From positions 502,650-566,649 of the forward strand of contig NW_002060966.1 in the NCBI RefSeq assembly GCF_000150275.1: DNA of 64,000 nucleotides. The letters run 5' to 3'. The DNA comes from Trichoplax adhaerens (Eukaryota; Animalia; Placozoa). Shown here one piece after another: positions 12,291-42,179 of the stretch. The number at the start of each line of letters is the position of its first letter. The stretch's first letter is position 1. Under the pieces are notes generated by a model. It was not told where the DNA came from. It saw only the letters and a program-made list of their open reading frames with translations, and ran no database searches. Made by a program: the position numbers and the translations under genes.

Positions 12291-15066
12291 GTCAGATTAC
12301 AATATGTCCGATCCTGGAACATTTCTGCGATAATCTACAATCTACCATAAGTAAATTATAATTACAGTGATTTGAATTGTAAGAAGATTATTCTCGATTC
12401 TCTAATTAAACAATTAACTTTAGTAGGCTGTATAATCACCATAAAAGCAAGTGCTACATTTAAATGTCTTATATCTAAATTAGAACTCTTCATATAAGTT
12501 TAAATCAACAAAATTATCCTAACATAGATGTTTGTACTATAATCTCGATTTTACAGTGTATAACATTACTACATGTTACAGTGTTATATACTGTAACAGG
12601 TAGTAATTTATTAAGACCGCACTTAGCTCTATGCATCGATAAATCTTCTGGTTACTTATTAATTAATCGATTTGTAAGGTATCATACCTAGTATCGATTA
12701 ATTAATTACACATTGTATTTGGTATGAAATATATTATCACCAACTTTAATCCGATATAAATCATAAAATTATTCATAAGTATATATCAAAGATTTGAATG
12801 AAAATTTTGACCTAGATTAACTTTTCTTAATCATTCCTGTCACAGGCTTACCACTTTTTCACAATTAAATTCATATTACAAAATATAGTTACAATTAAAA
12901 AGTAAATAAAATAGAGTTGGTTAACACCATAGAGAATTACTATTATAAATTTAGAGAATTTCACGAGAAAATAGTTGAGTCTTGACTGAAAAATTAGTTA
13001 GATATACTGTACAATTTACAATGATAAGCAATTACTAAGTAGTTTCTCAATAAAGAGAATCATAAACTAGTAAATATAGCATAAAGAATCTCTATAGCTA
13101 AATCGTCATGAATGTTTTCCAATTATAAATGAACTTTAATTATAATTATTAGAATATACTGATAGCAAACGCATAAGGAGAAATATCTAAATAATTAGAA
13201 ATAATGGGTGTAAAATTTGTACTAAGCAGACATTAGCTATGAAGCATGTAATCAAGAATTGACGGATGCTATAGTGCTTCATAAGCTATACGATTATACT
13301 AACTTTTACTTAAATCTCCGGAAGTAAAGTTACCCCAATAAAATAGTTTTCCCTATAAATTACATCGATCAATTAAATAATTATAAATCTATCAGGAGCA
13401 ACAACAATTAAATTACGGTAATAAACTATTACAATATATGTAGAGAGCATAACACCTGAAGATTTTGTTTAAGCTATGAAAAAATATTAAGCGAAGCAGT
13501 ACAAACTTCACTCAAAACTATTATTATCTATGACAATGTTCGATACATAAATTATCGAACATTTATTTTGTTTCGATAATTTGACAAGCTTAATAATAAG
13601 ATATCTGCTAAAGTTAGAATGAAACTTTGTACAACAGAGAGCTTATTTCATCAACACAATATTCTACGGAAATCATAACAAATACTTTCATCTGTCCGTC
13701 TTATTTCTTATTCCGATCTGTGTCGTAAGAATGCAAATAGTATCTAGGACATTGACATAATATTTATAATTACAAAGCTATATGGTATAGTAAACAGTTG
13801 AGAGTTTTATATTGGGAGGGTTTATGGCTTTTTAGCTATTGTCAGCAGTTTAATTTAATCCATTACCAAATGAGATAGTCAATTATAATGTCACACATAG
13901 CATAATAGGTCAATTATAATTGTGCCTGTAGGCAAATTGAGTACGCATTATAGATCAATTGACAAAACGATTTGGTCATAGTCATCTAAAAAAGAATTTA
14001 TTGTTATTCTGATATACTTATATTTCAGTAGCTGTGAAGCGTTTCTGTATCATTATGATGCAACATGTTTCTCACATTCTTTAGTTATATTATATTATGC
14101 CAAAAATAAAATAGGAAACCGATTAGAAATGGTTATCGAAGAGGCCATAGATAAGATCTATTAATTTGAATGAAATAAGTTCTTTTTAAATCTGCTATAC
14201 TATGCAGCGCTCATGCTGTGGTTTGTAATCCAATACTAGCTTTTATATTACTCAGCTAAGAATGAAGAAACATTTTACTGCCCTATTTGTATAAGTAATT
14301 TGACCTTAATTTATTGCAATCAACCATGTCGTACTGAGCATAAAAGATATTGGCAGGAAATACTTTAGATTGCCGTTTCTAAAAGCATTATACGCGAAAA
14401 TTTCTGTTCGAGACACTTGTTGATATGACTACGTAATAACAGTTTACCCGGTAACTGCAAAATATTTTGATAATTAGGCCATGGTGTATATACATAATCT
14501 CTCATGACCTCTCCAGCCCAAAAGGGCGCTAAAGAGAACGATCTAGATCACCATAGTAACAGATGTAGGCATTTCTATTGCATTTTATTTTTTACGATCA
14601 TTTTATTCTTATAAAATCAAACTGGTAGTAGACTTTTCTTTGGTAGCAATTTGAAATAGTACCGGAATCGTGCCATATTTGTTATGGATTTTACGATAGC
14701 TGATGATTGTTGATAATAAAAGAGCGAATCAAGAAATTAATTGGTTCAGAATATTGACAGTCATGCTTTTATCACCATTTCTTAATCACCAATTGTGATT
14801 TAAGCTTTTTTTGATCGATTAAGTCACATGGTTAATGACGCAAAGCACTGCCTAAGTAAATAATTCCGATGTTAATTCGAAGTCGTACTGACAACGATAT
14901 TCTCCTACTTAATTAAGAATTTAAGTTTGAAATCATAGCAGTTCGTAAACTTCTCATGTATCTGTAAAAACTAAGAGTAACATTCGAAAATTAAAAGGAT
15001 ATCCAACTCACAGGTTTTAAAAAAGTTCATCAACTTCATCAATCAAAAAGTAAGAAGCAACTTACG

Positions 15067-17712
15067 ATGGGTTCTGGTAGCAGTCTACAATCTAGAACGG
15101 TAGACTATAACGCAACGGCAAGAGCAATGATAGCAAAGGGTAAACGACTTCTAGATAAAGGATTATATCAAGAATCGCTTCAAGAATATCAAGATGCTTT
15201 GCAAGAGATGGATACCATTAATTCTACAAATCCTAATAGATCAAGTAACAAATTGGATAACCCCATGCTAGATATTTATCATGGCATGGCGATAGCTCAT
15301 GAGAAACAAAGCGAATGGACAGATGCAGAATCAGTGTATTATAAAATGATTCTATTGCAAGTCCAATTAACCGGAGAGAAGACCGTTCAAGTTGCTGATT
15401 TATATCGCCAAATGGGAAAATTATATTCAAAATTAAGCCAATTCAAAAAAGCTTTAATCATGCTTGAAAAATCCCTTCAAATTCGATTAGAATTATTTGG
15501 GATTGAAAATTTAAAAGTAACGGAAGCTTACGATGACCTCGCGTTGTATTATTGCCGAATGAATCGATTTCATGATGCCCAAAACAATTATGAAAAATCA
15601 TATAATATCCGTTTAAGGGAATTAGGCCAAAATGATATCGAAATCGTCAAATCATATAATAATATAGCAGATGTTCATATGCAGCAATGCCATTATAATG
15701 AGGCTTTGTCCTTCTATCAAAAATCGCTCAATCTTTGTAGACGAATTTATGGCGATAAACATCGTGATGTCGCTCAATCCTATCAACACATAGGTGATGT
15801 TGCTGTTAAACAGTTGCGATATGAAGAAGCGGCGGTCATTTATCAGACATGTTTAAATATGACTTTGGATTTATTTGGCAAAAAGCATGAAGATATTGCT
15901 CTTATATATATTAAAATGGCTGATATGCATATTCAGCAATCGGAATATCACGAAGCCATGAGTTTGTGTAAGAAAGTGCAAAAAATGTATCAGCAAATGG
16001 ATGAAAAAGAAAATCCAAATTCTACAGCACTAACGTTAAAAATAGCTAAAGTCTATCATTTACAGAGAAAATATGATTCTGCTTTAGGATTACTGCGGAG
16101 TCTATTGACAAAATTAACTCAGATATATGGGGATAGGCACGTGGATATCGCTGCTACTATGGAAGCTATATCAGAAGCAGTTTATGAACTTTTTGAATAT
16201 GAAACAGCACAAGACACTTTTGCTAAGACTTTACGTATGCGGTTAGCATTAACTGGCGAAAATAATGTCGATGTTGCGAGGATATATTTTCGCTTAGGTG
16301 ATATTAACTATGCCCGAGGTAATATTCCTGAGAGTATCAAATCTTATCTTCGATCTCTAAAAATTCGTTTAATCGTCTTCGGAGATAGCCATCCATCTGT
16401 TGCTGAAGCCGGAGATAGTATCGCGTTTATTTACATGATTTTTCGTAAGCATCATGAAGCTTTGGATTTATTCGAAAAATCGCTCAAGATCCGCTTACAT
16501 GTGAATGGCGGAATGAGTCCTAATACGGCTGCATCTTATAAAAATGTTGCTGTTATTTACTCCAAAGTTGGAAGACTGGAAGATGCCCTAGAAATGCTTC
16601 AAAAATCTCTTGATATTCGCTTGCATCTAACTGATGGCAAAAATAAAGATGTTGCTGTGTTATACGAAGAAATTGCAACAATCCATGCATTACAATCTAA
16701 ATATGAAGAAGCAATTACCGCGCTAGAGACATCATTAGAGATTCTAATACCCTTAGTGACGGAGGAACACCGGGATGTTGCCAATATTTATCTTCGTATC
16801 GGGGAAATATATAAAGCCCAAAAATTGTATAACAGGGCAGAGTTTTACTATCATAAGTCATTAACAAAGTTAATAGCAGCTATCGGGGATAGCAACTTAG
16901 AGGTATCTGGTCGTTATGAGGAATTAGCTTACGTACAATACTTGAACGAGGATTATGATCAAGCAGAAGTTTTATATGCGAAAGCTTTGGACATTCGTTA
17001 TACTGATCTGCGCCAAATAGACGAAAAAGTTGCAGAGTTGTTCCAGATACTGGGAACTATATACATGAAATTAGAAAATTATAACGACGCTCTTATGGTT
17101 TTAAATAAAGCTGTCGATGTTAGGACTCAGCTTTCAGCTGATCGCAACAGTGATTCTTTTGCCAATTTGTATCAAAATCTAGCTGCAGTTCATACTAGAC
17201 AATCAATGCAATATAATGCACAGCCTCTATTACTTAAAGCTTTAGCAATTCGAATTAAATTACACGGAGATAACAGCATTAATGTTGCTAATACATATGA
17301 GGCTATGGCTCATGATTATCAGCAACGCCAGCGATATCAAGAAGCTCTTACCATGTATCAGAAGGCCTTAAAAATTGCAGATGATCAATTAGGACCTACT
17401 CATATATTTGTTGCTCAATTATATGATTTCATCGGAGATGCCTACAAAGACTTGCATGATAACAAAAATGCAAGAACCATGTATCAGAAATCATTACAAA
17501 TTCAGGCTGATGTATTGAAATTAGAGAATCAAGACGTTTTAGACTTGTACAGTAAGTTAACTGATCTCATTCAGCAGCAAGGAGATTCTGAAGACGCTGC
17601 TTTACTGTTAAAGCAGGCTAAACTTTTGCACCAGAAATTACCAACCTTAACTACAAATAATATTTCACTTAGTAAATTAAAATACATTTTCTGGGAAGGC
17701 AATCGGTCATAA
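15067..17712 (+). CDS. Intronless 881-aa TPR-repeat protein (kinesin-light-chain/NPHP3-type TPR_12/TPR_10 repeats, about 19 units) with an N-terminal MGSGSS myristoylation-like motif
   Basis: A single 2,646 nt ORF with a 42-residue periodicity of A/Y/L-rich repeats (for example ...YEEALxxYQKSLxIRLxxxGxxHxDVAxSYxNIAxVY...). The start MGSGSSLQS has Gly2 and Ser6. No other domain is apparent. Confidence 0.85.
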   Translation: MGSGSSLQSRTVDYNATARAMIAKGKRLLDKGLYQESLQEYQDALQEMDTINSTNPNRSSNKLDNPMLDIYHGMAIAHEKQSEWTDAESVYYKMILLQVQLTGEKTVQVADLYRQMGKLYSKLSQFKKALIMLEKSLQIRLELFGIENLKVTEAYDDLALYYCRMNRFHDAQNNYEKSYNIRLRELGQNDIEIVKSYNNIADVHMQQCHYNEALSFYQKSLNLCRRIYGDKHRDVAQSYQHIGDVAVKQLRYEEAAVIYQTCLNMTLDLFGKKHEDIALIYIKMADMHIQQSEYHEAMSLCKKVQKMYQQMDEKENPNSTALTLKIAKVYHLQRKYDSALGLLRSLLTKLTQIYGDRHVDIAATMEAISEAVYELFEYETAQDTFAKTLRMRLALTGENNVDVARIYFRLGDINYARGNIPESIKSYLRSLKIRLIVFGDSHPSVAEAGDSIAFIYMIFRKHHEALDLFEKSLKIRLHVNGGMSPNTAASYKNVAVIYSKVGRLEDALEMLQKSLDIRLHLTDGKNKDVAVLYEEIATIHALQSKYEEAITALETSLEILIPLVTEEHRDVANIYLRIGEIYKAQKLYNRAEFYYHKSLTKLIAAIGDSNLEVSGRYEELAYVQYLNEDYDQAEVLYAKALDIRYTDLRQIDEKVAELFQILGTIYMKLENYNDALMVLNKAVDVRTQLSADRNSDSFANLYQNLAAVHTRQSMQYNAQPLLLKALAIRIKLHGDNSINVANTYEAMAHDYQQRQRYQEALTMYQKALKIADDQLGPTHIFVAQLYDFIGDAYKDLHDNKNARTMYQKSLQIQADVLKLENQDVLDLYSKLTDLIQQQGDSEDAALLLKQAKLLHQKLPTLTTNNISLSKLKYIFWEGNRS

Positions 17713-18420
17713 CTTTAGCCATTAATTAAATCTTTACAGGTTACTTGTGCATTATTTGTGGCTTATCTTTGGATTTGAAGTAATAATTATATAATTGATC
17801 TAGTTTCGTCTTTAAATACATAAATAGATATGAGAGCTTTGATTTTCCTGTGATTTTCAAAATATTCATTACTAGCCAAGTAGCCTTAATATCAGGATAG
17901 TCAGAAACTAATTTAGTAGCATCACATTGATGAAGCATCGCATTGGAATTAAATGTTTGGTGTAAACGAATGATAAATCATAATATCAATTTTCGAACAG
18001 ATTGGCCACATTTTATAGGGATTAAAATTGTATAACGGGAAATACTTAGCTACAATTTTTATCATATGGTGAACACCTTTAATCACTATTGAAATTGTAG
18101 AAAGAAGACTACGAAACTGCAAGTTCGAAAAATTTTTGTTTAATTGAAATGCCAACTGGACATCTAAGTGAAACATTACAAAAATATATAGTAAATGTAT
18201 ATGATTTTGTATTATTTTTGTCAGGACAGATTGAATTTGAATCAACTACTCGAAAAGTCCAAGACTTTTTACTATAGTTTATAATTCTCTAGAAATTAGT
18301 TACTAAGCCAAAGCACTAGAATTTATTACCTATATCTGTTATAGAAGTAATTTAGAACGCGATGGATATCTGATTGGCTCTACAGGAGTTAAACATAAAT
18401 TGTGTGTGATCTCTAACTGT

Positions 18421-18436
18421 ATATATATATATATAT
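18421..18436. repeat. (TA)n microsatellite
   Basis: tatatatatatatata. Confidence 0.6.
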
Positions 18437-19099
18437 GCTGCAACATTCGCGTTAAATATAAACTTTACTACTTTTTTGCGGTAATATTTAAATTTACCCA
18501 AATAGTATTTTAACAGGATTAAAAAATTTGTCTTGTTATCACGGTCAAGACTTTGTCATGAAATGTATATACTGTCAATTATATCTCGAAGTTAATACTG
18601 TGTACGCTGTGTAGCCATTGTTAACCAGTATACTTTCGTTGATGAATAATTATTATCCTGCAGAAGTAATTTATTAACTTTGACGACGTCTAAGAAAAGT
18701 CTCCTTAGAGGCATTACCCATAAATTTTGATCATTTGATTAGACAGCTTATCCAAGCCTGCCTATTTTATCTTTACCTTAAGTTATGCTATAAATTAAGC
18801 GCAAGAGGTTCATAAAATACATACTGTTTTGTCGTTAGTTTAGACTATAACTCATTCGTTTTAATAAAGTCTTTCATATAATTCAAGCCGTTAGTAGTTT
18901 TGTAAGATGTAGAAAACATTTAGCAATGACTTTAAGCGATTCAAAACTTTATTCTCAAAGATTCAGACAAGCAAAGTTTGATCAATCAATCGGTGAAGCG
19001 ATTTAGTAAGTGTAAAGTAGAATTATAACTATAATTTTTTATTAGTGCAGGGCTAAATTCGTAGCTATAACACCCGCCTACTACGCTAGATGAAAAGTA

Positions 19100-30882: not shown

Positions 30883-31144
30883 TTTAAAAGAGGAGCTAGT
30901 TCACCGCTATATCCATTCGACTGAAGCTCGCGACAGACTCGAGAAAGAATGGCAACAGCAAGCTGCACATAAGAAAATAAACGATCGAGAAGCAACTCGA
31001 ATTCCTAGCCCAGATGAATTACTACTAACACAATGTGATAAATACACACGATGTTTACAATGTCAACGAAAGCCGACCAATAATGGTAAATCCAATTTCT
31101 TCAAGGACACGGTTTTCATGTCGGGTACTCGATACATAGTATAG
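30883..31144 (+). CDS. CCDC81: CCDC81 terminal exon (LKEELVHRYIHSTEARDRLEKEWQQQ...CDKYTRCLQCQRKPTNNGKSNFF...*)
   Basis: Acceptor ttatctggtag, TAG stop at 31142-31144. The C-terminal Cys motif matches human CEKYRRCKQCQRRTSNVGESNLW. Confidence 0.75.
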
Positions 31145-32830
31145 AAATATAGAATAAATTTAATTGAATTAAATCACATTTGAATGGTTATGATTGGTTG
31201 GATCAGAAAGAAGAAATTTTAAATTGCATTAGAATCAGAAAAACCTGAATTTTGTATTTGTTATTGCAATCTTATTTATTATTCATTTATATTTTTAGAA
31301 TAAAAATTTGTATACAGTACTTGTTATAACAAGCGCCAGTTTGATATTATTTCCATTCAACAAAATTCATTTTCATAATAGGTGCATAGCTATAGAAAGA
31401 GGCTAGACTGTAAGGGCAATATTAAAACCTATCTGTACCGATGATATTCTATTTTTTTAAGGATTTGATGAATTTTTGTAATGGACAATTTAATAAACCT
31501 TTGATACTGTGTTAGAAAAGAGTTTTGGTAGATAAATAAAAGAAGTATCGATACAGAATTGATAGAAAGGTGTAGAGAGTAAGTAAGAGCTTTAGAAAAA
31601 TGTAAATTTTATTGTCGTTATTATTTAATTCAATGTTCTAACTTTAACCTGCAATGTCAGAAAATATAAAACATAACAAGAATGACTGCAGATAAATACT
31701 TCATGATCATATTTAGATGGTGTATGATTTTATGAAATGGCTGTTTTCGAATAATTCCTATATAATGCAAGGTTTTGTACTGTATAGTCAATGCTCTTAA
31801 TTTTAGATTGTCCGCTATCACGAATAACTAATAAATATAAACAGATAGTCCTAATCAATAAACCTGATTATGTAATTTAAAATTTAACATTACGTCTCTT
31901 CAGAACAGTTACTCTTGATAAAATTGCCACAGAGCAACTTTCGTGATCGATCCCAAATTCGTCTATCTACTCTATTTGATCTCTGGTTAAACTCCGAGGA
32001 TCCTTGACAAAAGCTAACTTATTCTAGTACTACTGTTACAAGCGTATTGATAGAAATTTAGGTTAAGGATTTTATTTATTTATGGCTAGTTAGTATACGC
32101 CAGTACCAGCGTATTATAAGTTACTCTCAGTGTAACTGAGGAGTAAGTAATAATTAAAATTTTATATAATTTCCCCATATTGAACACGGCTGCCTTAATA
32201 GTAGCCTCTTACAGTATAGTTATATGATAGTATGCCTTATATATGGGGCTATTACAGTCTAGAGCACCAAATTAAAAATAATTGTCGCTAATGAATATTA
32301 ATTAGCAATGACGTATTGTTGTCCAGTCATCAAACACCACGAGATCCCCCTTTATTCTATACAAACCATACTGTAAAATTTAAAAAAATACTAATAGATA
32401 TATAATAATCCAACCCAAGGGCGTTATTAATAGTATTTATTAATTACTATTTGGGGAAAATGTCTACTGCATAACAGTCCTCAATAATCATAATATTTTT
32501 AATTACCCAGTTAAGATTTACTATCAGCCAACAAAGACAGTAACAACAGCAACCGAGCCAGTTAAAATATGCTACTTTCTATAAAAAAGTCAAATTAATT
32601 ATGGATAAAATAAATCAAAATTCAAAAGTTTTCTTTATCATTGTTATAGAAATATTGAATAAAACTGACTTGTAGTAAGACATGTTATCTTACTATAAAT
32701 GATCTATGTTATTGAGTACAGGAATAAATAGATCAGAATATCAAATAGCATTATGTTAATGCGCTATTAAAAAGACATAAAATTAGTCACTATTATTACA
32801 AATCAATTGAACATCAATATTATCGTGATA
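31143..32830. repeat. Segmental repeat copy A (about 1.7 kb, noncoding); homologous to 34258-35390 and partially to 37200-37330
   Basis: Shared blocks: aaatcacatttgaatgg(t/g)tatga(t/c)tgg(t/a)t..., cattt...atatttttagaat(a/g)aaaattt(g)(t/g)atacagtac, caatgttctaactttaa..., gacttg(t/c)(a/t)(g/a)taag..., t(t/c)tgttaatgc(g/a)ctattaaaaag..., and caatattatc(g/a)tgataat(a/g)t. Identity is about 75-80%. Confidence 0.65.
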
Positions 32831-34257
32831 ATATAGCCTAATGTATTTTAATATAAATTAAAAGTCAAGTCAATAAAATTGGTAGGCTGTCAATAAAGCT
32901 TGGATATATCCGTGAAATCTTTTGATGCATTTGGTCATTCCACATCACGCAACCCTTAACTATGAATCGGAAATGGAGTTTTCCTTTTTTGAAAGTTTGA
33001 TTTTAGATTATAATTAGAGCAACAAACTTCATTTCTAGTCTAAAAGCATAGCCCAGACTAGGTGTAAAATATTCAATACTCGCAAGCCTAACTACGGGAA
33101 GGAATATAAAAACTCTACGCCTTGAATTTTCAAATGATCTTAAATGATTATTATATCTAGGCTATCCATGATCAATCACCTTGCTGATTTTTAAAATTCA
33201 AGTCAATAGAATCCCGATATTTTCGGCGATATTCTTAACATTGAGGAACTAAATATGGTGTGGCACTATGGTACTTGGCAGTCACATTAGGTATATTTAA
33301 TCATATTGGATAAATTAAGCGATAAAATAATGATATAATGATAGCCAATTTATTTGTAAAATGACCATAAAAATTCTCATTGGTCTTCTTGAATAATATG
33401 GATATAAAGGTTGGTCAAGTTATGAAATTCTTTGACCTGCGTGATAATTTACGGCCTTATAACAAATGAAATTAAGAAAATAAATCAAAGCGCAAATTCA
33501 TCTGTGTTAATTCTACAAAGATCTAGCCTTGCTATATTGTCAAAGCCGGTATATTTATCGTAGCTGAGTGTTCAATAATATTTGGCAGATTACAGTAGAA
33601 CTGGGCAGATTTACAGAAATTAATATAGTTGAGTTTACTTCAAATTCATGTCAATGATGATTCACGGTAGAATCATAGTTAATCAGCTTATTAGATTAGA
33701 TTCTTAATTGGTAATCGTTACAAGTTGCCAGCTAGACTGGATGTTGTACTTAACAAAACCTAGGCATTATCTAACCAACCAGCAGTTTCTACGGTTGATT
33801 TACGAGTATTTGCAGATTCTAATACATTCTCAAGTAACCCTACTATTAAAATTGAAATTTCCATTTCTAAATTCACTTTTATACTCCAGACTTAGTTTTC
33901 CAGCACTTGTGCAGCTCATAAATACATCTAACCCAATCGGCAGTGTAGAAATATCCAAAGTTTTATGCTTACTGTATTAATTTTCAATTTACTAGTATAA
34001 TTTAGGGCGTTGCGTTAGTGAGGAATCTGTAATATGCAAATATTGTAAATTTGCTGTAATATGGTAGCATGTGCTATATGTTACAAATTTGCGATATGTA
34101 GTATAAAAGTATGTGATTACTAGAAATAAAAGAGAGTTTTTTCGTGGTCAAACAAAAATTGTACTCGTTAATCTTGGTCTTACTCCAGCAATAGAAGAGC
34201 CTCGTGCCTAGTCCGCCCATATAAACTAGCAGATAACATAGTACAGTACATTAGTAT

Positions 34258-35390
34258 TTCAGTTGTATAGAAATACAGAATAAAATTGAACTGAGTTAAA
34301 TCCTATTCTGAGTAGATGTGATTAAATTAAATCACATTTGAATGGGTATGACTGGTTTATCCAGAAAGAAGAAATTTCAAATTTTATCGTAATGAAAAAA
34401 TTTGAATTGGATATTAATTATTGCAATTTTATTTATCGCTCATTTATATTTTTAGAATGAAAATTTGGATACAGTACTCTACTTTTAATAACAAACGCTA
34501 ATTTGATCTTGTCCACAATCAACAAAATTGGCTTTTATAATCAAATAGAGTTATTTTAGAAAAATGCTACACAAGTAAAGCAACATAAAATCCTATCTGC
34601 ACCGATTATTTTTTTATAGCTTTGCAGAATTAATGGACACTTTAATATGCCTTTGGTACTGTATTACAAAGAGTGTTGGTAGGGAAAGTATGGTATCGAT
34701 ACAGAGTTCACTTAAGGTAAATACAGAGTAAATAAGAATTAAAAAAAACATAGCTTTTGTTGTAATTATTCACTTCAATGTTCTAACTTTAATTTACAAT
34801 GCAAGAAAATATAATAACCTAACAATAATGACTGCAGATGAAATACTTTATAATCAATCATATTTAGATGGATTATGATTAAATGAAATGATTATTTACG
34901 AAATATTCCGATATAGAGCAAGGTTTTGTACTGTAAGGTCAACGCTCTTAATATCGGATTATCAATCATCATAACTCATAGTAGTAAATTGATGGTCCAG
35001 GATTAATAAACATGGTTATTCAATTTAAAATTTGACGTAATATCTTTTCAACAGTAACTCTTACTAAAGTCAGCTCTCGAGTTGAAATATTCTACTTTCT
35101 ATAATTAAACCAATTCAGATTAATGCCGATAAAATAATTTAAATTAGATGCTTTCGATTATCTTTTTTGATATATTGGATAAAAACTGACTTGCTATAAG
35201 ATATATTATCTTACTAGAAGACCATCAATGTTATTAATAAGGTATAAATAGAGAAGATATTTCGAGTAATATTCTGTTAATGCACTATTAAAAAGGCACG
35301 AAATCAATCTTTGTTATTATAAATCAATTCAGTATCAATATTATCATGATAATGTGATTGATCTGAATAGGAATATATAAAGTATTATTC
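34258..35390. repeat. Segmental repeat copy B (about 1.1 kb), immediately upstream of the GNAT gene
   Basis: Co-linear with copy A, with internal deletions. Confidence 0.65.
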
Positions 35391-35673
35391 CTGCTATTCT
35401 TGCCAGAAGTCTATTGTTTTCCTCGACAGTAAATGCTAATGACCCATTACGTCGAACAAGATGATAATAGACGCCAATTTGTGCTTAGCTCCGTAATCTC
35501 CATATGCCAACTTATCCATTTCTTGTTGATTGTATCAGCAATAAAAAATCGATAGGTAAATGCTAGAGATTTCATTAAAACAACACTTCAAAGCGATAAA
35601 TCACAATAACCATTAGAATCTAAGTATAGAGAAATTTACGAATTTATGGTACTAATGCTTTAGTTTGGCCATA

Positions 35674-36510
35674 ATGTCACAAGATTCTAACTTTGAAATT
35701 GTAACAGCTACTATCAATCAAATGAAATGGATCATTTCTATGGCTAAAGATGAAGGATGGAATCCCGGAGAAGATGATTTTGTATTTCAGTTAGCGGATC
35801 CCACTGGTTATTTTATTGGGCTATTAAATGGAGAACCAATTTGTTGTATATCTGCGACAAAATACAACATTCAAGCAGAAATGGGGTACTATGTTGTTAA
35901 AAAAGAACACCGTGGTTTAGGCTATGGTAGGGCTATCATGCAACATAGCTTGAAATACTTGAAAGGCTATAATATTTTAATTTATGCCTTACAACATAAA
36001 ATTGGTACGTATGAAACTATAGGGTTTAAAAAACATGAGGCGATGATACGATATGCAGGAATTATAGCGAAAAAAGAGGTTATTAGTGATAATATTTATT
36101 CAGCTAGAGACATTCCTCTGGACAAAATTGTAGAATATGATGCACGTTATTTCGCAGAAGAAAGGAAAAAGTTCTTAAGTGCGTGGTTAATGATTGGAAC
36201 AGCAAACAGTTTCGTATATAAAATAGGAGATAACATTCGAGGTTTGGGGGCAATACGAAAAGCTCAAGATGGCTATCGTATAGGACCTCTATATGCGGAA
36301 ACACCGGATATCGCAATAACTTTATTTCATCGTCTTTGTCAAGACTACGAAAACTGTAAAATCACCGTTGAATGTCCTGCATCCAACGCCGATGCCAAAG
36401 AATTGGTGAAGAAGTTCAAGCTGGACAAAGTCTTTCAAGGTTCAACTATGTATTCGGGAGAGCTGCCTAAAGTTAATTTAAATCACATTTATGGCGTTAT
36501 AACTCATTAA
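35674..36510 (+). CDS. Intronless GNAT-family N-acetyltransferase, bacterial YitH-like architecture (N-terminal GNAT fold plus C-terminal extension), 278 aa
   Basis: Single ORF. The first in-frame ATG (35674) gives MSQDSNFEI.... The acetyl-CoA-binding-like motif VVKKEHRGLGYGRAIMQHSL fits the GNAT Q/RxxGxG/A pattern. The 278-aa length and two-domain layout resemble YitH-type GNATs. The ORF track's upstream TTG start at 35665 is less likely. Confidence 0.7.
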   Translation: MSQDSNFEIVTATINQMKWIISMAKDEGWNPGEDDFVFQLADPTGYFIGLLNGEPICCISATKYNIQAEMGYYVVKKEHRGLGYGRAIMQHSLKYLKGYNILIYALQHKIGTYETIGFKKHEAMIRYAGIIAKKEVISDNIYSARDIPLDKIVEYDARYFAEERKKFLSAWLMIGTANSFVYKIGDNIRGLGAIRKAQDGYRIGPLYAETPDIAITLFHRLCQDYENCKITVECPASNADAKELVKKFKLDKVFQGSTMYSGELPKVNLNHIYGVITH

Positions 36511-37199
36511 AGTCTACTAGTGTCGCTTATTTTGTTTGCAAAAATGTAAAAATATTTCTAGTTATAGCTTTCTATGCCTTCTTAATTCTAGTTAACACTG
36601 TACCCAATGGATGTAATACTTCATCTACATGATAAATAAAGGTTTCAGAATCTTTTTCGATTAGATTTGATTTCATGATATAAGTGTTTTCAAATGGTTC
36701 CAACCAGTAACGATATTGACTATGTGAATATAGTCAATACTGTTGCTATCGGATTGTGAAGCTATTTTGGATAATTTTATTACCGATAATATCTATCAGT
36801 GGGTGATTGATGATTCAGTAAATACGATTGTTTCATTCAAATTTGTTTTACACCTTCATTTTTGATATAAGGACTGAAAACTTACTTTTCAATGTATCAA
36901 TTCAAATCACGGAGACTAGTCACACGTTTTTTTCTAACAACTAGATCGTGCGTAAGTATTCTTGCTATTTTTTAATGCTCATCGTCTTCCATTTTAGTGT
37001 CTATACTAAAATTCAACTGAATTGGAGCTACGTATTACTTGAGTGCAATGCAATATTTCTGTCGTTCTTAACCATTATATCTGTAGTGAGGCTGTTAGGC
37101 AAACTGTTGTTGTCAATTTGTTAAGTAGAATAACTCAGATATAGCTTAAAAACGATACTAAAATCTAAGGCTGTTGACTATAATAGGCATATATAAGTA

Positions 37200-37480
37200 A
37201 TGTTGGTGATAAATCAAGTAGGACTTGCTATGAGATATTGTATCTTACTACAGGACGAGTCATGTGATTAAGTATAGGAAAATACAGATCAGATATATCG
37301 AGTAATATTATGTTAATGAGTTATCCAACAGAAACTCTGGATTGCTCTAAGAATTGAATCCTGGAGTAGACGATATTATAGTTTAGCTACCAGATTCTAC
37401 AGGCTATTTTATTGGGCTATTAAAATAGAGAACCAGTTTATTGTATATTTTGAAAAATTACAGTTTTCAAGCAAAATGGA
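37200..37480 (+). pseudogene. Degraded partial copy of the repeat-plus-GNAT unit (repeat tail 37200-37330, GNAT fragment 37381-37480)
   Basis: 37210-37330 matches the copy B tail (...ctta(c)tac(a)agga(c)...gatatatcgagtaatattatgttaatg...). 37381-37480 (ggctattttattgggctattaaaatagagaaccagtttattgtatat...ttcaagcaaaatgg) is about 80% identical to GNAT nt 35805-35885 but has no open frame. Confidence 0.55.
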
Positions 37481-39019
37481 AGGATGCATATTCCACGTAA
37501 CGAAATACATTTAAAGAAAATTCACAGTTAGATTCACTTGCTACATACGCTTCTTTGATATAATAAAGGCATATCATAAATTTTGTGAAAATTGCATATT
37601 AACGGCTAGAACTGCGATTACAATACTGAACAGAGAGTGTACATTGATCAGTAATAAAACACAATTTAGTATCAATATAATATCCTTGTAACACAACCTG
37701 TTCTACAAACTGTAATTAAAGTGTAGTTCACACAAGTAATTTTAGAATAGCAGATTTTATTACTGGTTCTCTATCGATTGAAATACTGTGTAGATAATAG
37801 TACAACAAGCTCAGACAGACAAGGAAAACTTTCTACAACAGCAGATCTTAGAAAAGAAGGACTAAGAACAACAATGACAGAAAAGTGTAGCTGCTTGTAT
37901 ATGTTATCTAACTTGTTTATAACATGATAATTGCGAAAAACATTAATTCAACACTTACAGAACTTAGTATAAGAATAAAATTATATGATTATGTTCTACG
38001 AAGCTGAAATCAACATACTTGCATTATCACAAACATTACTTATATATATACCTATTATTGTTAACAACCCTAGATTTTGGTATTATTTTATGTCTAATTC
38101 ACTTCTACGTAACATGTTGACAACAATAGCTTGTCTAACAGCTTCTCTGCAATCCTGTGCTAGTTTTAGCCATTAATGCGAGCAAAACTGAATAATAAAT
38201 TATTGTAAATGTCATCGGCAAGATGGTAGATAATGAGCTAATCTAAATTAACAAGGACCTTACGCCAAACTTCTTTTACAAGTCCATTAGTTCTCCAGCG
38301 ATATGTATCAAACTACAAGATCTTTCAAGTTAACCAAATACTTTAAATATACGCTTATATGAAATCATGAATCAAATTCAATTACATCGGTTTCATTTAA
38401 ACAGCGGCAATCGGTAGTATACGTATTGATAAAGTAACGTGTTGCCGCCGATGATAGCAACGGATTTAGCATTTTGTTGAGTAGGGAGAATGTTACCATG
38501 CGGCTGAGCATAGACTAGTCGGGGCAACTTGAAGAAGGCTGAACGTGTATGATCGATGCTTTTCAAAATAAGAAAACAAGTTACTCTAGTTTCTTGCAAA
38601 CTTTATTACATCAATCTCACAATGTAATAAGATACATGTGGAATTATTCTCGTACATTATTGCACTCTTAATCTTAGCTACAGTATATCTGTAACATAAG
38701 TCGACAAGGCGATATTAATAACGCTAGTCGTCGTATACTGTTTCTTAAGATAAGTGGTACAATAATATACATGATAGACGTAGAATAGAGCTACAATGCG
38801 AAAAATCAAGCCATAAAATACCGCAACAAAACAAGTGAAATTTTGTAGAATCTATCCATTTTTGAGGAATTAATTGGTATTGATGGCGTCAGACAAATTT
38901 TATTTCAGTGTAATAGCCTAGTTAGGTAATATTGCACGAGATACAATTTTGGATGCATGGAGCTGTGGAAAAGTTATTTTGAGTTATGACCTTCAATGGC
39001 CGAATAACACGTAGCGTTT

Positions 39020-40140
39020 TATAGTACTGATTTCAAATTTTTAAAATCAGTAAAGCGATCCATCATTTGTAGCCTAGATATATCATAACCCCATTGTTGA
39101 TTTTGAAAGTCCATAACAGCACCTATTCATCTCTAGTATAATCGCATAGTCATCTAAAATCGCACGAGATGTCTAATCTCGGCATTACTGTGGAATAGGC
39201 AGCTTGAGCTAGTACCAGCAATCAGCGATCGAATGAAAGAGTTGGATGACATTGACTCGAACATTCAAAATTAGCAAAGCGATTCATCATTTATGGCCTA
39301 GAGGTGTTATAATCCCTTTGCTGATTTTGAAAGCTCAATTCTATAATAGCACGTATTGATCTCTAGTGTAATCGCATAGTCATGTAATACCATATGAGCA
39401 CCTATTAATTTGTAGCATAATCTCATAGTGATGTAGTATCCTACGAAATAAAATACTGTCTAATCTTGGCATTCCTTAGGAATAGGCAGCTTGAGCTAGT
39501 ACCAGCAATCAATGATCGATTGAATGAGTTGGATGATATTGACTCTAACTTTCAAAATCAGCAAAGTCATTCATCATTTATAACTTAAAGATGTTCTAAC
39601 CCCTTTGCTGATTTTGAAAGCTCAATTGCATAATAGCTGGTATTGGTCTCGAGTGTAATCGCATAGTCATGTCCTGTAATAGTATAGGAGATAAAATACT
39701 GTCTAATCTGTGCATTACTGTGGAATGGTTAGCTTGAGCTAGTACCAGCATTCAGCGATCAACTGAAAGAGTTGGATGATATATATTGACTCTAACGTTG
39801 AAAATCAGTAATTTATATATTATATATCAGTATATAAGGCATTACCAGCAATCAGCGATCATCTGAAAGAGTTGGATGATATTGACTGTAACTTTTAAAA
39901 TCAGCATAGCCCACAGATGTTTTAACCCCTTTTACTGATTTTGGAAGCTCAATTGCTTAATAGCTCGTATTGATCTAGATCTAGTGTAATCGCATAGTTT
40001 TATACTACCATCAGAGATAAAATACTGTCTAATCTCGGCGTTACTGTGGCATAGGCAGCTTAAGCTAGTACCAGCATTGAACAATCAACTGAAAGAGTTG
40101 GATGATGTTGATTCTAGCGTTCAAAATCAGTAATTTCTAT
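39020..40140. repeat. Satellite array A, unit about 250 bp, about 4.5 copies
   Basis: Repeating unit ...cctttgctgattttgaaagctcaatt...agtgtaatcgcatagtcatg...ataaaatactgtctaatct(c/t)ggcatt...agcttgagctagtaccagca...gagttggatgat(a/g)ttgactc.... Copies start near 39020, 39270, 39520, 39775 and 40010. Confidence 0.75.
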
Positions 40141-40251
40141 ATTATATCTGCGTATATATATATATAGATATATATCATATAGAGAGAGATATAAATAGAT
40201 ATGTATATTACATATAATATATTATTATTATATATGAGTATATACATATAC

Positions 40252-40283
<32 letters not shown>

Positions 40284-40290
40284 GGATAAA
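40140..40290. repeat. (TA)n/(GA)n/(ATA)n compound microsatellite
   Basis: tatatatatatagatatatatcatatagagagagatataaatagat...agagagagagagagg. Confidence 0.8.
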
Positions 40291-41060
40291 TATTTATTAT
40301 AGAACCGAACCGTTAGCAAGTCTAGTTGTAGGCATTTTGCCGATTTTGAAAGTTGCATTGCGCCAGAGGCTGCAGTCATCTGGAGTGTAATCGTCGAGCC
40401 ATGAAGTACTGTATGAGATAGAATACTGTCCCATGAATAGCAAGCTGTCCAAAAGACGAGCGTTGCTTAGGTCAATCAGAAATTTCCATATTATATCTTA
40501 GCATATATATATAGATATATATCTATATAAATCGATATATATCATGTTAGCAAGTCTAGTTGTAGGCATTTTGCTGATTTTGAAAGTTGGATGACACCAG
40601 AGGCTGCAGTCATCTCCAGTGTAATCGTCGAGCCATGCAGTACTGTATGAGATAGAATACTGTCCCATGAATAGCAAGCTGTCCAAAAGACGAGCGTTGC
40701 TTAGGTCAATCAGAAATTTCTATATTATATCTTAGCATATCTATAGAGATATATATCTATATAAATCGATATATATCATATAGAGAGAGATGTAAATAGA
40801 TATGTATATATATTATATATGAGTATATATACATATATATATATATAGAGAGAGAGAGAAAGAGAGGATAAATTTCTATTATAGAACCGAACCGTTAGCA
40901 AGTCTAGTTGTTGGCACTTTGCTGATTTTGAAAATTGGATGGCACCAGAGGCTGCAGTCATCTCCAGTGTAATCGTTGAGCCATGCAGAGATAGAATAGG
41001 AGATAGAATATGAGTAGCAAGCTGTCCAAAAAGACGAGCGTTGCTCAGGTCAAATCCAAT
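40290..41060. repeat. Satellite array B, unit about 250-330 bp, three copies with interspersed TA/GA microsatellite; related to array A through a shared t(t)gc(t/c)gattttgaaag core
   Basis: aaccgaaccgttagcaagtctagttgt(a/t)ggca(t/c)tttgc(c/t)gattttgaaa(g/a)ttg...ccagaggctgcagtcatct(g/c)(g/c)agtgtaatcgt(c/t)gagccatg...caagctgtccaaaagacgagcgttgct(t/c)aggtcaa recurs at 40299, 40546 and 40880. Confidence 0.75.
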
Positions 41061-41656
41061 CATAGCTTATTCACTGATAGGATTTGACTGGAAAATAGAG
41101 TCATGTATACTACAGTAGATAGTCATTTGGAGGAGGATCGAGCCTCGCGTAGGCCAAATCCAGTACTTTCAAGATCTGATAGTAAACACTATAGCACGTT
41201 CCATACTATACTTGAATGTCTATAGACAATCCAGTCGACACCAGTCAGTCCATTCAAATCCACACCAGCCGCTGTCGTCTAGCCAATCAGAGATCAGCTG
41301 CCAATCTGCTGTCTGACGATCGACTAGTATGTATCAAACATCGACGTGGTTGCATACACATTCCAGTTAAATTAGGCCACAAAAATAAGCTTGTATAAAA
41401 ATCTCCAAATGATCCATTGATCGCACTAGACTGCTAACGAAAATCTTCTCCATTAGCGGCCTTGGCAGGCGTTCTTCTTGCTCATTTTCACTTCATTTGT
41501 GGCATTTTTGCCTTGTTTTACTTATTGTAGGAGAGCGATACAATCCGATTGGTATTAAGAAAGCATTGAGTCATCTTTTTCAACTCATTTGGACTCTATG
41601 TACCCTGTAGGATTGAGTTGATTGAGAAGTGAAGAGGAAATTAACCCTTGAAAGGC

Positions 41657-41679
41657 AACAACAACAACAACAACAACCT
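41657..41679. repeat. (CAA)7 microsatellite in the presumptive CDK8 5' UTR
   Basis: caacaacaacaacaacaacaacc. Confidence 0.7.
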
Positions 41680-41708
41680 TCGACATCGGCAAGCGTTGTA
41701 GGTTGAAA

Positions 41709-41836
41709 ATGGATCCTGAATTTAAGAATCGTCTTGAAAAGAAACGCCGTAAAGTCCAAGATACCTTTGAATTTGAAGGATGTAAAGTTGGACGGGGTAC
41801 TTATGGCCATGTTTATAAGGCCAAGATGAAAAGCAG
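41709..41836 (+). CDS. CDK8: CDK8/CDK19 exon 1 ([42 protein letters not shown])
   Basis: ATG at 41709, donor AG|gtaaac. Near-identical to the human CDK8 N-terminus ([41 protein letters not shown]). Confidence 0.85.
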
Positions 41837-42179
41837 GTAAACATGAAGACGATGCAATCGTCCTATCCTATAGCCAACCAATTTTCCTTCCATGGCTACT
41901 TTCTCCGTTCATAGTCGATACATTCCGTCAATAATAAATAATAATAATAATAATAATTAAAAAAGAGCGCTTAAAAAAAGGACGGTCGATAGCATGATTT
42001 TAAAGTGTATCCATCTACCGTGCTTATTCCATCGGTATGATGCCAACAAAAGAGTCTTTTTCTTGCTGACAAGGAAGGAGTTTTTTCCAACGAGTTGCAC
42101 AGTGTTGAAGATCCAATCGCTTGACATTGATAGCATGTTGTGACCAATAAATGTAATTTCTTTTTTATCGGATGGATAG

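Follow-up and report, generated by a model that had tools for sequence, protein, structure and literature searches.

An intronless tandem-GNAT acetyltransferase gene of Trichoplax adhaerens, most likely acquired from bacteria and later multiplied

Introduction

The YitH-like GNATs of the Acetyltransf_18 family (PF18014) are bacterial proteins of about 280 amino acids. The Trichoplax adhaerens protein described here (278 aa) shares their length and domain order, matches the full Acetyltransf_18 model, and has in common with them the R-G-x-G-x-G acetyl-CoA loop and the family-invariant residues. Unlike the bacterial members, its gene lies in an animal nuclear genome between eukaryote-type flanks. 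It also belongs to a divergent, placozoan-only clade no more than 40% identical to any of them; the likeness to YitH is one of family. The C-terminus differs too: bacterial proteins end in ...TTFELG, whereas one placozoan subfamily ends in ...T-x-H. A literature search on PF18014 and YitH returned nothing relevant. From its InterPro name, we take Acetyltransf_18 to be linked to the HolE/HlmA holothin N-acyltransferases.

Two further sets of proteins are comparable in structure. PDB entry 3DDD, a putative acetyltransferase of Pyrococcus horikoshii from structural genomics, has the same full-length fold (TM 0.83, rmsd 2.8 A; 279 aligned columns, profile E=6e-22), but is archaeal and only 22% identical in sequence. 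The tandem GNATs MshD (mycothiol synthase), Eis, Legionella VipF, and N-myristoyltransferase (NMT) likewise consist of two fused GNAT folds. In these enzymes, as predicted for the Trichoplax protein, the acyl-CoA site belongs to one domain, while its partner contributes to the acceptor site. The likeness is one of architecture only, with TM scores of 0.52-0.69 and identities of 9-17%.

Bacterial-like GNAT transfers in Trichoplax have already been published, and the gene itself is already annotated. Driscoll et al. 2013 (PMC3641634) describe GNAT_1 and GNAT_2, two intronless lateral-transfer candidates in T. adhaerens. They are GCN5-related N-acetyltransferases, non-rickettsial, and located on large eukaryote-like scaffolds; intracellular bacteria group near them in the authors' trees. 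These neighbours fit the Parachlamydiaceae, Legionella, and Coxiellaceae matches reported below, and by description the two genes resemble the one studied here, TRIADDRAFT_61594. Their list has two genes, compared with the five or more paralogs found here. No paper on TRIADDRAFT_61594 was found in the literature.

Results and Discussion

A host-integrated gene between multi-exon neighbours

The window analysed is a stretch of 64,000 nucleotides of the T. adhaerens genome, and all positions refer to it. The gene and its candidate 3' signal are as follows:

35674-36510, + strand: intronless CDS of the 278-aa tandem-GNAT acetyltransferase, TRIADDRAFT_61594 (T. adhaerens) / TrispH2_009722 (Trichoplax sp. 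H2)
36635-36640, + strand: AATAAA poly(A)-signal-like hexamer, 125 nt past the GNAT stop; sequence match only

We consider it probable that this interval encodes a tandem-GNAT, acetyl-CoA-dependent N-acyltransferase of the Acetyltransf_18 (YitH-like) family, and that the gene, functional and integrated in the host genome, passed from a bacterium to placozoans long ago and was then duplicated. The open reading frame is uninterrupted from an ATG at 35674 to a stop ending at 36510 on the + strand, as originally predicted, with an alternative TTG start at 35665. Its product is identical (100%) to XP_002117534 of T. adhaerens and RDD38349 of Trichoplax sp. H2. TATA-like sites, also sequence matches only, occur 5' of the CDS at 35243, 35318, and 35374. 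Matches to bacterial promoters and terminators are not enriched around the gene.

The other conserved genes of the window had been described as multi-exonic. This is true of both flanking genes: CCDC81 spans 4.6 kb for a product of 724 aa, and a kinase gene spans 4.1 kb for one of 454 aa. No ncRNA or tRNA was found in the 11-kb intergenic region. The window matches a contig of Trichoplax sp. H2 at 99.6-99.7% DNA identity with the same repeat layout. As this contig is independent, the layout is not an assembly artefact. Continuity of the flanks had been proposed as a check for contamination, and the same locus is indeed found on large eukaryotic scaffolds in both assemblies (160 kb and 753 kb, the latter from T. 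adhaerens). The two CDSs show no differences where about two were expected, which is too few for a test of selection between H1 and H2.

Local duplication of the repeat and the gene

The intergenic region contains three copies of a repeat, a decayed part of the GNAT gene, and a dispersed element:

31139-32832, + strand: non-coding repeat copy A, beginning at the end of CCDC81, on its TAG stop (31142-31144) and AATAAA
34265-35353, + strand: repeat copy B, 74-76% identical to copy A
37081-37220, + strand: partial dispersed repeat of ~470 bp (first 140 nt), directly abutting copy C
37222-37318, + strand: partial repeat copy C, 79% identical to copy B 35188-35282
37349-37479, + strand: decayed GNAT fragment (pseudogene), corresponding to codons 27-70 of the intact GNAT gene (78% identity)
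37687-38151, - strand: full copy of the dispersed ~470 bp element, 87.6% identical to L004 11095-11565

Copies A and B align in two blocks, 31152-31922 with 34310-35068 (74% over 790 nt, E=8e-131) and 32560-32832 with 35080-35353 (76%, E=7e-43). Between them, copy A has about 637 extra bases (31923-32559) that are absent from copy B. The match reaches back to 31139 = 34265 and takes in the CCDC81 stop codon. The predicted arrangement, with copy A starting at that codon and copy B preceding the GNAT gene, is therefore correct, and the matches are far above chance. Copy B ends 320 nt 5' of the GNAT ATG and thus probably provides the promoter region or borders on it.

A third partial repeat followed by a non-coding GNAT fragment had also been proposed, and these correspond to copy C and the pseudogene listed above. 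The fragment carries in-frame stops and 1-nt indels, and weaker gapped similarity to the gene may continue to about 37584. Relative to unit B, about 470 bp are missing at copy C, comprising the promoter-proximal region and codons 1-26. The dispersed element that abuts copy C is found again 236 bp 3' of the paralog TRIADDRAFT_61616; the full copy at 37687-38151 is inverted relative to the partial one.

The original prediction that the repeat and the GNAT gene were duplicated as a unit holds for the step from B to C, but not for copy A. No GNAT remnant follows copy A (Smith-Waterman score 17 versus a shuffled mean of 16.1; noise only in tblastn), so that this copy consists of the repeat and nothing more. 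The local history has two stages. In the first, duplication affected a block from the 3' flank of CCDC81; in the second, more recent one, a stretch comprising part of the upstream repeat and the 5' portion of the GNAT gene was copied about 1.6 kb downstream, where it is now decaying.

Domains, fold, and predicted activity

The expected two-domain GNAT layout was recovered, with both domains above their Pfam gathering cut-offs. Acetyltransf_1 covers residues 16-118 (E=3e-11, 44.0 bits, cut-off 20.7) and is matched in all seven placozoan-type members checked. Acetyltransf_18 covers residues 152-274 and model positions 1-124 of 124 (E=4e-29, 101.2 bits, cut-off 22.7). An AlphaFold2 model with a mean pLDDT of 95.9 shows two fused GNAT folds; the top solved match is 3DDD, followed by VipF, MshD, Eis, and NMT.

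The Trichoplax protein keeps every family-invariant residue. These include R80, G81, G83, G85, Y113, G117, and F118, which are invariant or nearly so over 61 sequences. We assign R80-G81-G83-G85 and Y113-G117-F118, presumably, to GNAT motifs A and B; they agree with the patterns R/Q-x-x-G-x-G/A of the loop that binds the acetyl-CoA pyrophosphate and Y...GF of motif B. The N-terminal, presumably catalytic domain would bind acetyl-CoA through the R80-G-x-G83-x-G85 loop, together with the motif B residues Y113, G117, and F118. Its C-terminal, GNAT-like partner would pack on it and form an acceptor pocket, which may be lined by the family-invariant G28-W-N-P-G32, D35, D42-P43, Y155-D156, R195, and P205. 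A small-molecule amine is the probable acceptor. A search for a characterised close homolog found none.

A placozoan family of intronless paralogs

The gene has company in its own genome. At least five intronless Trichoplax paralogs, the fifth being TRIADDRAFT_62132, are 39-47% identical. These five and eight sequences found on AT-rich contigs of environmental origin form one clade with 98-99.5% bootstrap in neighbour-joining (NJ) trees; all trees were built by NJ only and were midpoint-rooted or unrooted. Profile scores separate the clade clearly, with at least 359 bits inside it and at most 275 bits outside. The family contains two subfamilies, and none of the placozoan-type members has an intron. 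We infer that the environmental contigs are of placozoan origin; when the flanks of four of them (L001, L002, L005, L009) were compared with Trichoplax DNA, the CDS alone matched.

Since the gene belongs to this family, the transfer predates the expansion to five or more paralogs. This agrees with the earlier claim that any transfer would be old, as the paralogs are merely 39-47% identical and their synonymous sites are saturated. Intact reading frames, retained invariant residues, and pN values well below pS (0.17-0.35 versus 0.56-0.75 between members) support the view, drawn from sequence comparison, that the paralogs are kept under purifying selection.

Composition is less informative. The gene is host-like, as had been claimed (GC3 0.29), but its nearest homologs in bacteria are AT-rich to the same degree (GC3 0.26-0.31). 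Composition therefore cannot tell donor from host, and codon usage was rejected as evidence on the donor.

Relatives outside the placozoans

An exhaustive search gave 2647 matches. Below the clusters of placozoan type, the highest-ranking matches that carry a name are to Burkholderiales, Neisseriales, Parachlamydiaceae, Chlamydiales, and Roseibium, all at 40% identity or less; Legionella and Coxiellaceae are also among the family matches. Nearly all remaining relatives that could be named or placed are bacterial. The source was looked up for 30 of the 150 best cluster representatives, one of which has a eukaryotic source, being a transcript assigned to the protist Paraphysomonas. Other animals were absent from the matches listed, IMG/VR contained no viral relatives, and JGI metagenomes yielded bacterial-grade matches only (36% identity or less). 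The closest homologs are hence intronless placozoan paralogs, then bacterial proteins, rather than widespread intron-bearing metazoan genes.

Among prokaryotes, the family is present in at least 595 species of many phyla. A bacterial gene context was confirmed for three matches, for example between mraZ-rsmH-ftsL-ftsI and greA. No neighbour gene is conserved across the 80 bacterial genomes compared. A neighbour cluster of 22 loci appears, by the coordinates of its example ORF, to be an opposite-strand ORF overlapping the GNAT gene, and other clusters are confined to the Roseibium/Labrenzia/Stappia group. A phage-defence or toxin GNAT was also considered, and was rejected for want of a PADLOC match or viral relatives.

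Origin of the gene

The most likely history is an old gene transfer from bacteria, with later multiplication. A single bacterial copy would have entered a placozoan ancestor long ago and then duplicated into the five or more Trichoplax paralogs under purifying selection. The original prediction of horizontal transfer is supported on two counts: the nearest relatives outside placozoans are bacterial, and the locus lies on eukaryotic scaffolds. Bacterial or symbiont DNA mis-assembled into the contig would be another source, and Driscoll et al. (PMC3641634) report that Trichoplax harbours bacterial endosymbionts and that its assemblies include bacterial scaffolds. This explanation is effectively refuted by the recurrence of locus, flanks, and repeats in two independent assemblies, by the multi-exon animal genes on either side, by the local duplication of flanking non-coding DNA with the gene fragment, and by bacterial matches that never exceed 40% identity. 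Origin as a processed retrocopy, from a placozoan parent gene with introns, would account for an intronless gene in a large intergenic region beside dispersed repeats. It is very improbable: none of the five paralogs is an intron-bearing parent, no A-run or poly(A) remnant was found 3' of the gene, and the upstream non-coding repeat was copied along with the CDS fragment, which points to duplication at the DNA level.

The remaining alternatives concern the few eukaryotic relatives. The gene could be an ancient eukaryotic or metazoan one, inherited vertically and lost in most lineages, with placozoans, nematodes, and some protists as survivors and the bacterial likeness reflecting slow evolution of the universal GNAT family. 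In its favour, the sequence nearest to the placozoan clade, though weakly so, is the Paraphysomonas transcript. One paralog is also annotated in H2 under the name of C. elegans F36G3.2, which is expressed in worms; a nematode homolog is implied by that name only. With these two candidates the family is not wholly missing from other eukaryotes, and an older, patchy distribution among them is conceivable. We nevertheless regard vertical descent as unlikely. It requires very many independent losses, the placozoan members all lack introns, and a single one of the 30 top representatives looked up has a eukaryotic source. The nematode protein is absent from the profile matches at E<=1e-30, where many bacterial proteins are present. 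In addition, MMETSP transcriptomes can contain bacterial contaminants. The same transcript bears on whether the donor was instead eukaryotic, for example a prey organism or a bacteria-eating protist, which had itself received the gene from bacteria. Paraphysomonas P0037 is the best and most frequent single sister of the placozoan clade in the NJ trees (52 of 200 bootstrap replicates). This support amounts to 26%, however, its identity of 36% is no higher than that of bacterial matches, and the transcript is putatively eukaryotic; a eukaryotic donor is decidedly improbable. Direct transfer from a bacterium is accordingly preferred.

Implications for placozoan biology

A further reading, conceivable if rather doubtful, is that a bacterial N-acyltransferase was domesticated early in placozoan history and grew into a family of two subfamilies peculiar to the phylum, five or more of whose genes are in Trichoplax. 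Its enzymes would neutralise amine-containing metabolites of bacteria or algae encountered in biofilm grazing, or modify metabolites exchanged with the intracellular symbionts. If so, the intact gene beside its decaying copy would represent birth-and-death turnover that is still under way, with diet or symbionts as its driver. The locus represents no new kind of system; what is added is detail, namely the family of at least five paralogs, the single placozoan clade, and the local decaying copy. Few well-supported transfers from bacteria to animals have remained functional and subsequently expanded. As placozoans are early-branching and have intracellular symbionts, each solid case helps to show how animals recruit bacterial enzymes.

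Genomic context of the acetyltransferase gene

The window contains an uninterrupted reading frame on the plus strand, running from the ATG at 35674 to a stop codon ending at 36510, that encodes a 278-residue protein. As the original prediction held, this intronless gene combines two GNAT domains. Pfam Acetyltransf_1 matches residues 16-118 (44 bits) and Acetyltransf_18 matches residues 152-274 (101 bits, E=4e-29, all 124 model positions), both well over the curated cut-offs; no specific model for the protein was found in NCBIfam. An AATAAA is located 125 nt past the stop codon and TATA-like matches occur 5' of the gene. No poly(A) remnant was found nearby, and matches to bacterial promoters and terminators around the gene were at background level only.

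The protein is identical to T. adhaerens XP_002117534 (TRIADDRAFT_61594), placed on a 753-kb scaffold, and to RDD38349 of Trichoplax sp. H2. As the window matches H2 contig NOWV01000181.1 with 99.6-99.7% identity (difference of 0.3-0.4% between window 25680-46154 and L003, the aligned H2 contig), it is distinct from the H2 assembly and probably represents the allele of T. adhaerens H1. All repeat copies and the GNAT fragment described below are common to both, and the coding sequences show no differences. The annotated neighbours, CCDC81 and a protein kinase, are both multi-exon genes. This shared layout between multi-exon animal genes places the gene in a genuine animal locus and effectively excludes contamination as its source. 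Apart from it, no gene is called in the 10.9-kb gap between its neighbours (31145-42064), where it lies amid repeats. The Trichoplax genome is compact and this intergenic stretch seems unusually long; it resembles a region shaped by local duplication and the turnover of repeats.

Features of the locus and of L004 (H2 contig NOWV01000215.1); window coordinates unless stated
31139-32832, repeat copy A, starting on the CCDC81 TAG stop
34265-35353, repeat copy B, pairing with copy A
35674-36510, plus strand, GNAT coding sequence (reading frame with both Pfam domains)
37081-37220, plus strand, 140-nt partial copy of a dispersed ~470-bp element
37222-37318, repeat copy C, partial, 79% identical to 35188-35282
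37349-37479, decayed GNAT fragment, 78% identical to GNAT codons 27-70
37687-38151, minus strand, full copy of the dispersed non-coding ~470-bp element
39033-39980 and 40125-41053, satellite-like tandem arrays
L004 10001-10858 (plus), 13892-14743 (plus) and 17699-18538 (minus), intronless two-domain GNAT paralogs
L004 11095-11565, dispersed ~470-bp element near another GNAT paralog

Local duplication and decay

Copies A and B align as two paired blocks with 74% (E=8e-131) and 76% (E=7e-43) identity. Because copy A opens on the CCDC81 stop codon (31142-31144) and also carries the CCDC81 AATAAA, the duplicated block is the 3' flank of that gene. Approximately 637 bp of copy A (31923-32559) have no counterpart in copy B, reflecting either an insertion in the former or a deletion in the latter; within the window this segment occurs only once, and a 4-bp indel lies inside it, at 32142, in the H2 allele. 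The GNAT fragment follows copy C and is interrupted by stops and 1-nt indels. This third unit is short by ~470 bp, with the start codon among the lost part. The predicted repeats, including a copy A beginning at the CCDC81 stop and a third partial copy followed by a GNAT fragment, are all present. The further proposal, that repeat and gene were duplicated as a unit of which one copy is decaying, is borne out where B gave rise to C but not for copy A: no trace of a GNAT remnant was found after copy A, so co-duplication is demonstrated for the B to C step only.

Other elements occur near the locus. The decayed fragment is bracketed by the full, inverted copy and the partial copy of the dispersed ~470-bp element, possibly a non-autonomous transposon of small size or the scar of a rearrangement; identity is 87.6% between the copies that lie beside two different paralogs of the GNAT family. 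In the satellite-like arrays, the repeat units measure ~287 and ~243 bp at 39.0-40.0 kb; a 234-bp unit is present twice at 40312-40779, and (TA)n tracts occupy 40153-40268 and 40737-40847. Differences and indels between H1 and H2 are densest here (9.8 per kb versus 2-4 per kb elsewhere). A short inverted-repeat match (76-81%) between 33152-33214 and both 39036-39082 and 39531-39592 ties the spacer after copy A to the array 6 kb downstream.

A placozoan gene family

Three intronless paralogs of the same architecture are clustered within 8.5 kb on L004, about 21 genes from the GNAT gene on the same H1 scaffold. Two of them are TRIADDRAFT_61616 and TRIADDRAFT_61617; the third is annotated in H2 as 'Uncharacterized protein F36G3.2'. 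A fifth family gene, TRIADDRAFT_62132, is on a different scaffold. The paralogs share 39-47% identity with the window protein. Eight more sequences of this type, one of them 70% identical to the F36G3.2-like paralog, come from short, gene-poor, AT-rich environmental contigs (31-35% GC). These probably derive from other placozoans; flank homology that would back this origin was not found. Every member has an intact reading frame and retains all family-invariant residues. Low pN between members (0.17-0.35) against saturated pS (0.56-0.75) indicates purifying selection and old divergences.

Relatives in bacteria and eukaryotes

When 1.84 billion cluster representatives were searched exhaustively with phmmer, 2647 matches were obtained. 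The best outside the placozoan-type clusters have 34-39% identity, and those named are from Burkholderiales/Neisseriales, Parachlamydiaceae, Chlamydiales and Roseibium/Labrenzia, three of them in clearly bacterial gene context. A scan of one genome per species detected the family in at least 595 prokaryotic species of many phyla, with none above 38-40% identity to the window protein. JGI metagenome matches were all at or below 36%, and no relatives were found in the viral contigs searched. The predicted bacterial-type affinity is consistent with these results, as the best named outside matches are bacterial, at no more than 40% identity.

A profile built from the placozoan-type sequences separates them sharply from all others (at least 359 bits versus at most 275), and neighbour-joining trees of 163-178 sequences recover them as a single clade with 98-99.5% bootstrap. 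This clade comprises two subfamilies, the GNAT gene belonging to the one with T-x-H protein ends. Its commonest single sister (26% bootstrap) is a Paraphysomonas transcript from MMETSP1103. This 289-residue family member from a marine chrysophyte transcriptome, a weak nearest neighbour, may be a genuine eukaryotic gene, acquired in a second eukaryotic event, or else stem from bacteria contaminating the transcriptome. From the name that the H2 annotation gives one paralog, a nematode homolog can also be deduced, C. elegans F36G3.2; it is expressed in worms and would qualify placozoan exclusivity among animals. Many bacterial proteins are among the profile matches at E<=1e-30 but the nematode protein is not, and it is thus not the closest relative.

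Predicted structure and function

The AlphaFold2 model, of high confidence, comprises two fused GNAT folds (pLDDT 95.9). The closest solved structure, 3DDD, an uncharacterised P. horikoshii protein, shares this fold (TM 0.83). Other tandem GNATs, among them VipF, MshD, Eis and NMT, come next (TM 0.52-0.69). By analogy with GNAT enzymes in general, motif B would comprise Y113 and G117-F118, and R80-G-x-G83-x-G85 would form the acetyl-CoA loop; hence, the N-terminal domain is likely to be catalytic. The acceptor site would owe its shape to the conserved G28-W-N-P-G32, D35, D42-P43, Y155-D156, R195 and P205. No conserved neighbour gene was found among bacterial homologs, and no defence-system model matched the protein. 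A small-molecule amine is our working guess for the acceptor.

Origin of the family

Host-like codon usage had been taken to signify an old transfer. The GC3 of 0.29 does look host-like, but the nearest bacterial homologs are just as AT-rich, so composition is no guide to origin; the age is instead in line with the old divergences. Most likely, the family arose by an ancient transfer from a bacterium to a placozoan, grew to five genes or more and, more recently, underwent a local partial duplication, now decaying, at the GNAT locus. The gene's proposed status as a horizontal-transfer candidate is supported, with the corrections that it belongs to a family of at least five genes and that copy A lacks a GNAT sequence.

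On large scaffolds of T. adhaerens, Driscoll et al. 2013 (PMC3641634) reported 12 genes resembling those of bacteria, including GNAT_1 and GNAT_2, two intronless GCN5-related N-acetyltransferases that are non-rickettsial and have intracellular bacteria nearby in the authors' trees. Compared by description, these fit the placozoan GNAT family, and the GNAT gene is likely identical with one of them. The case is solid, though largely known already.
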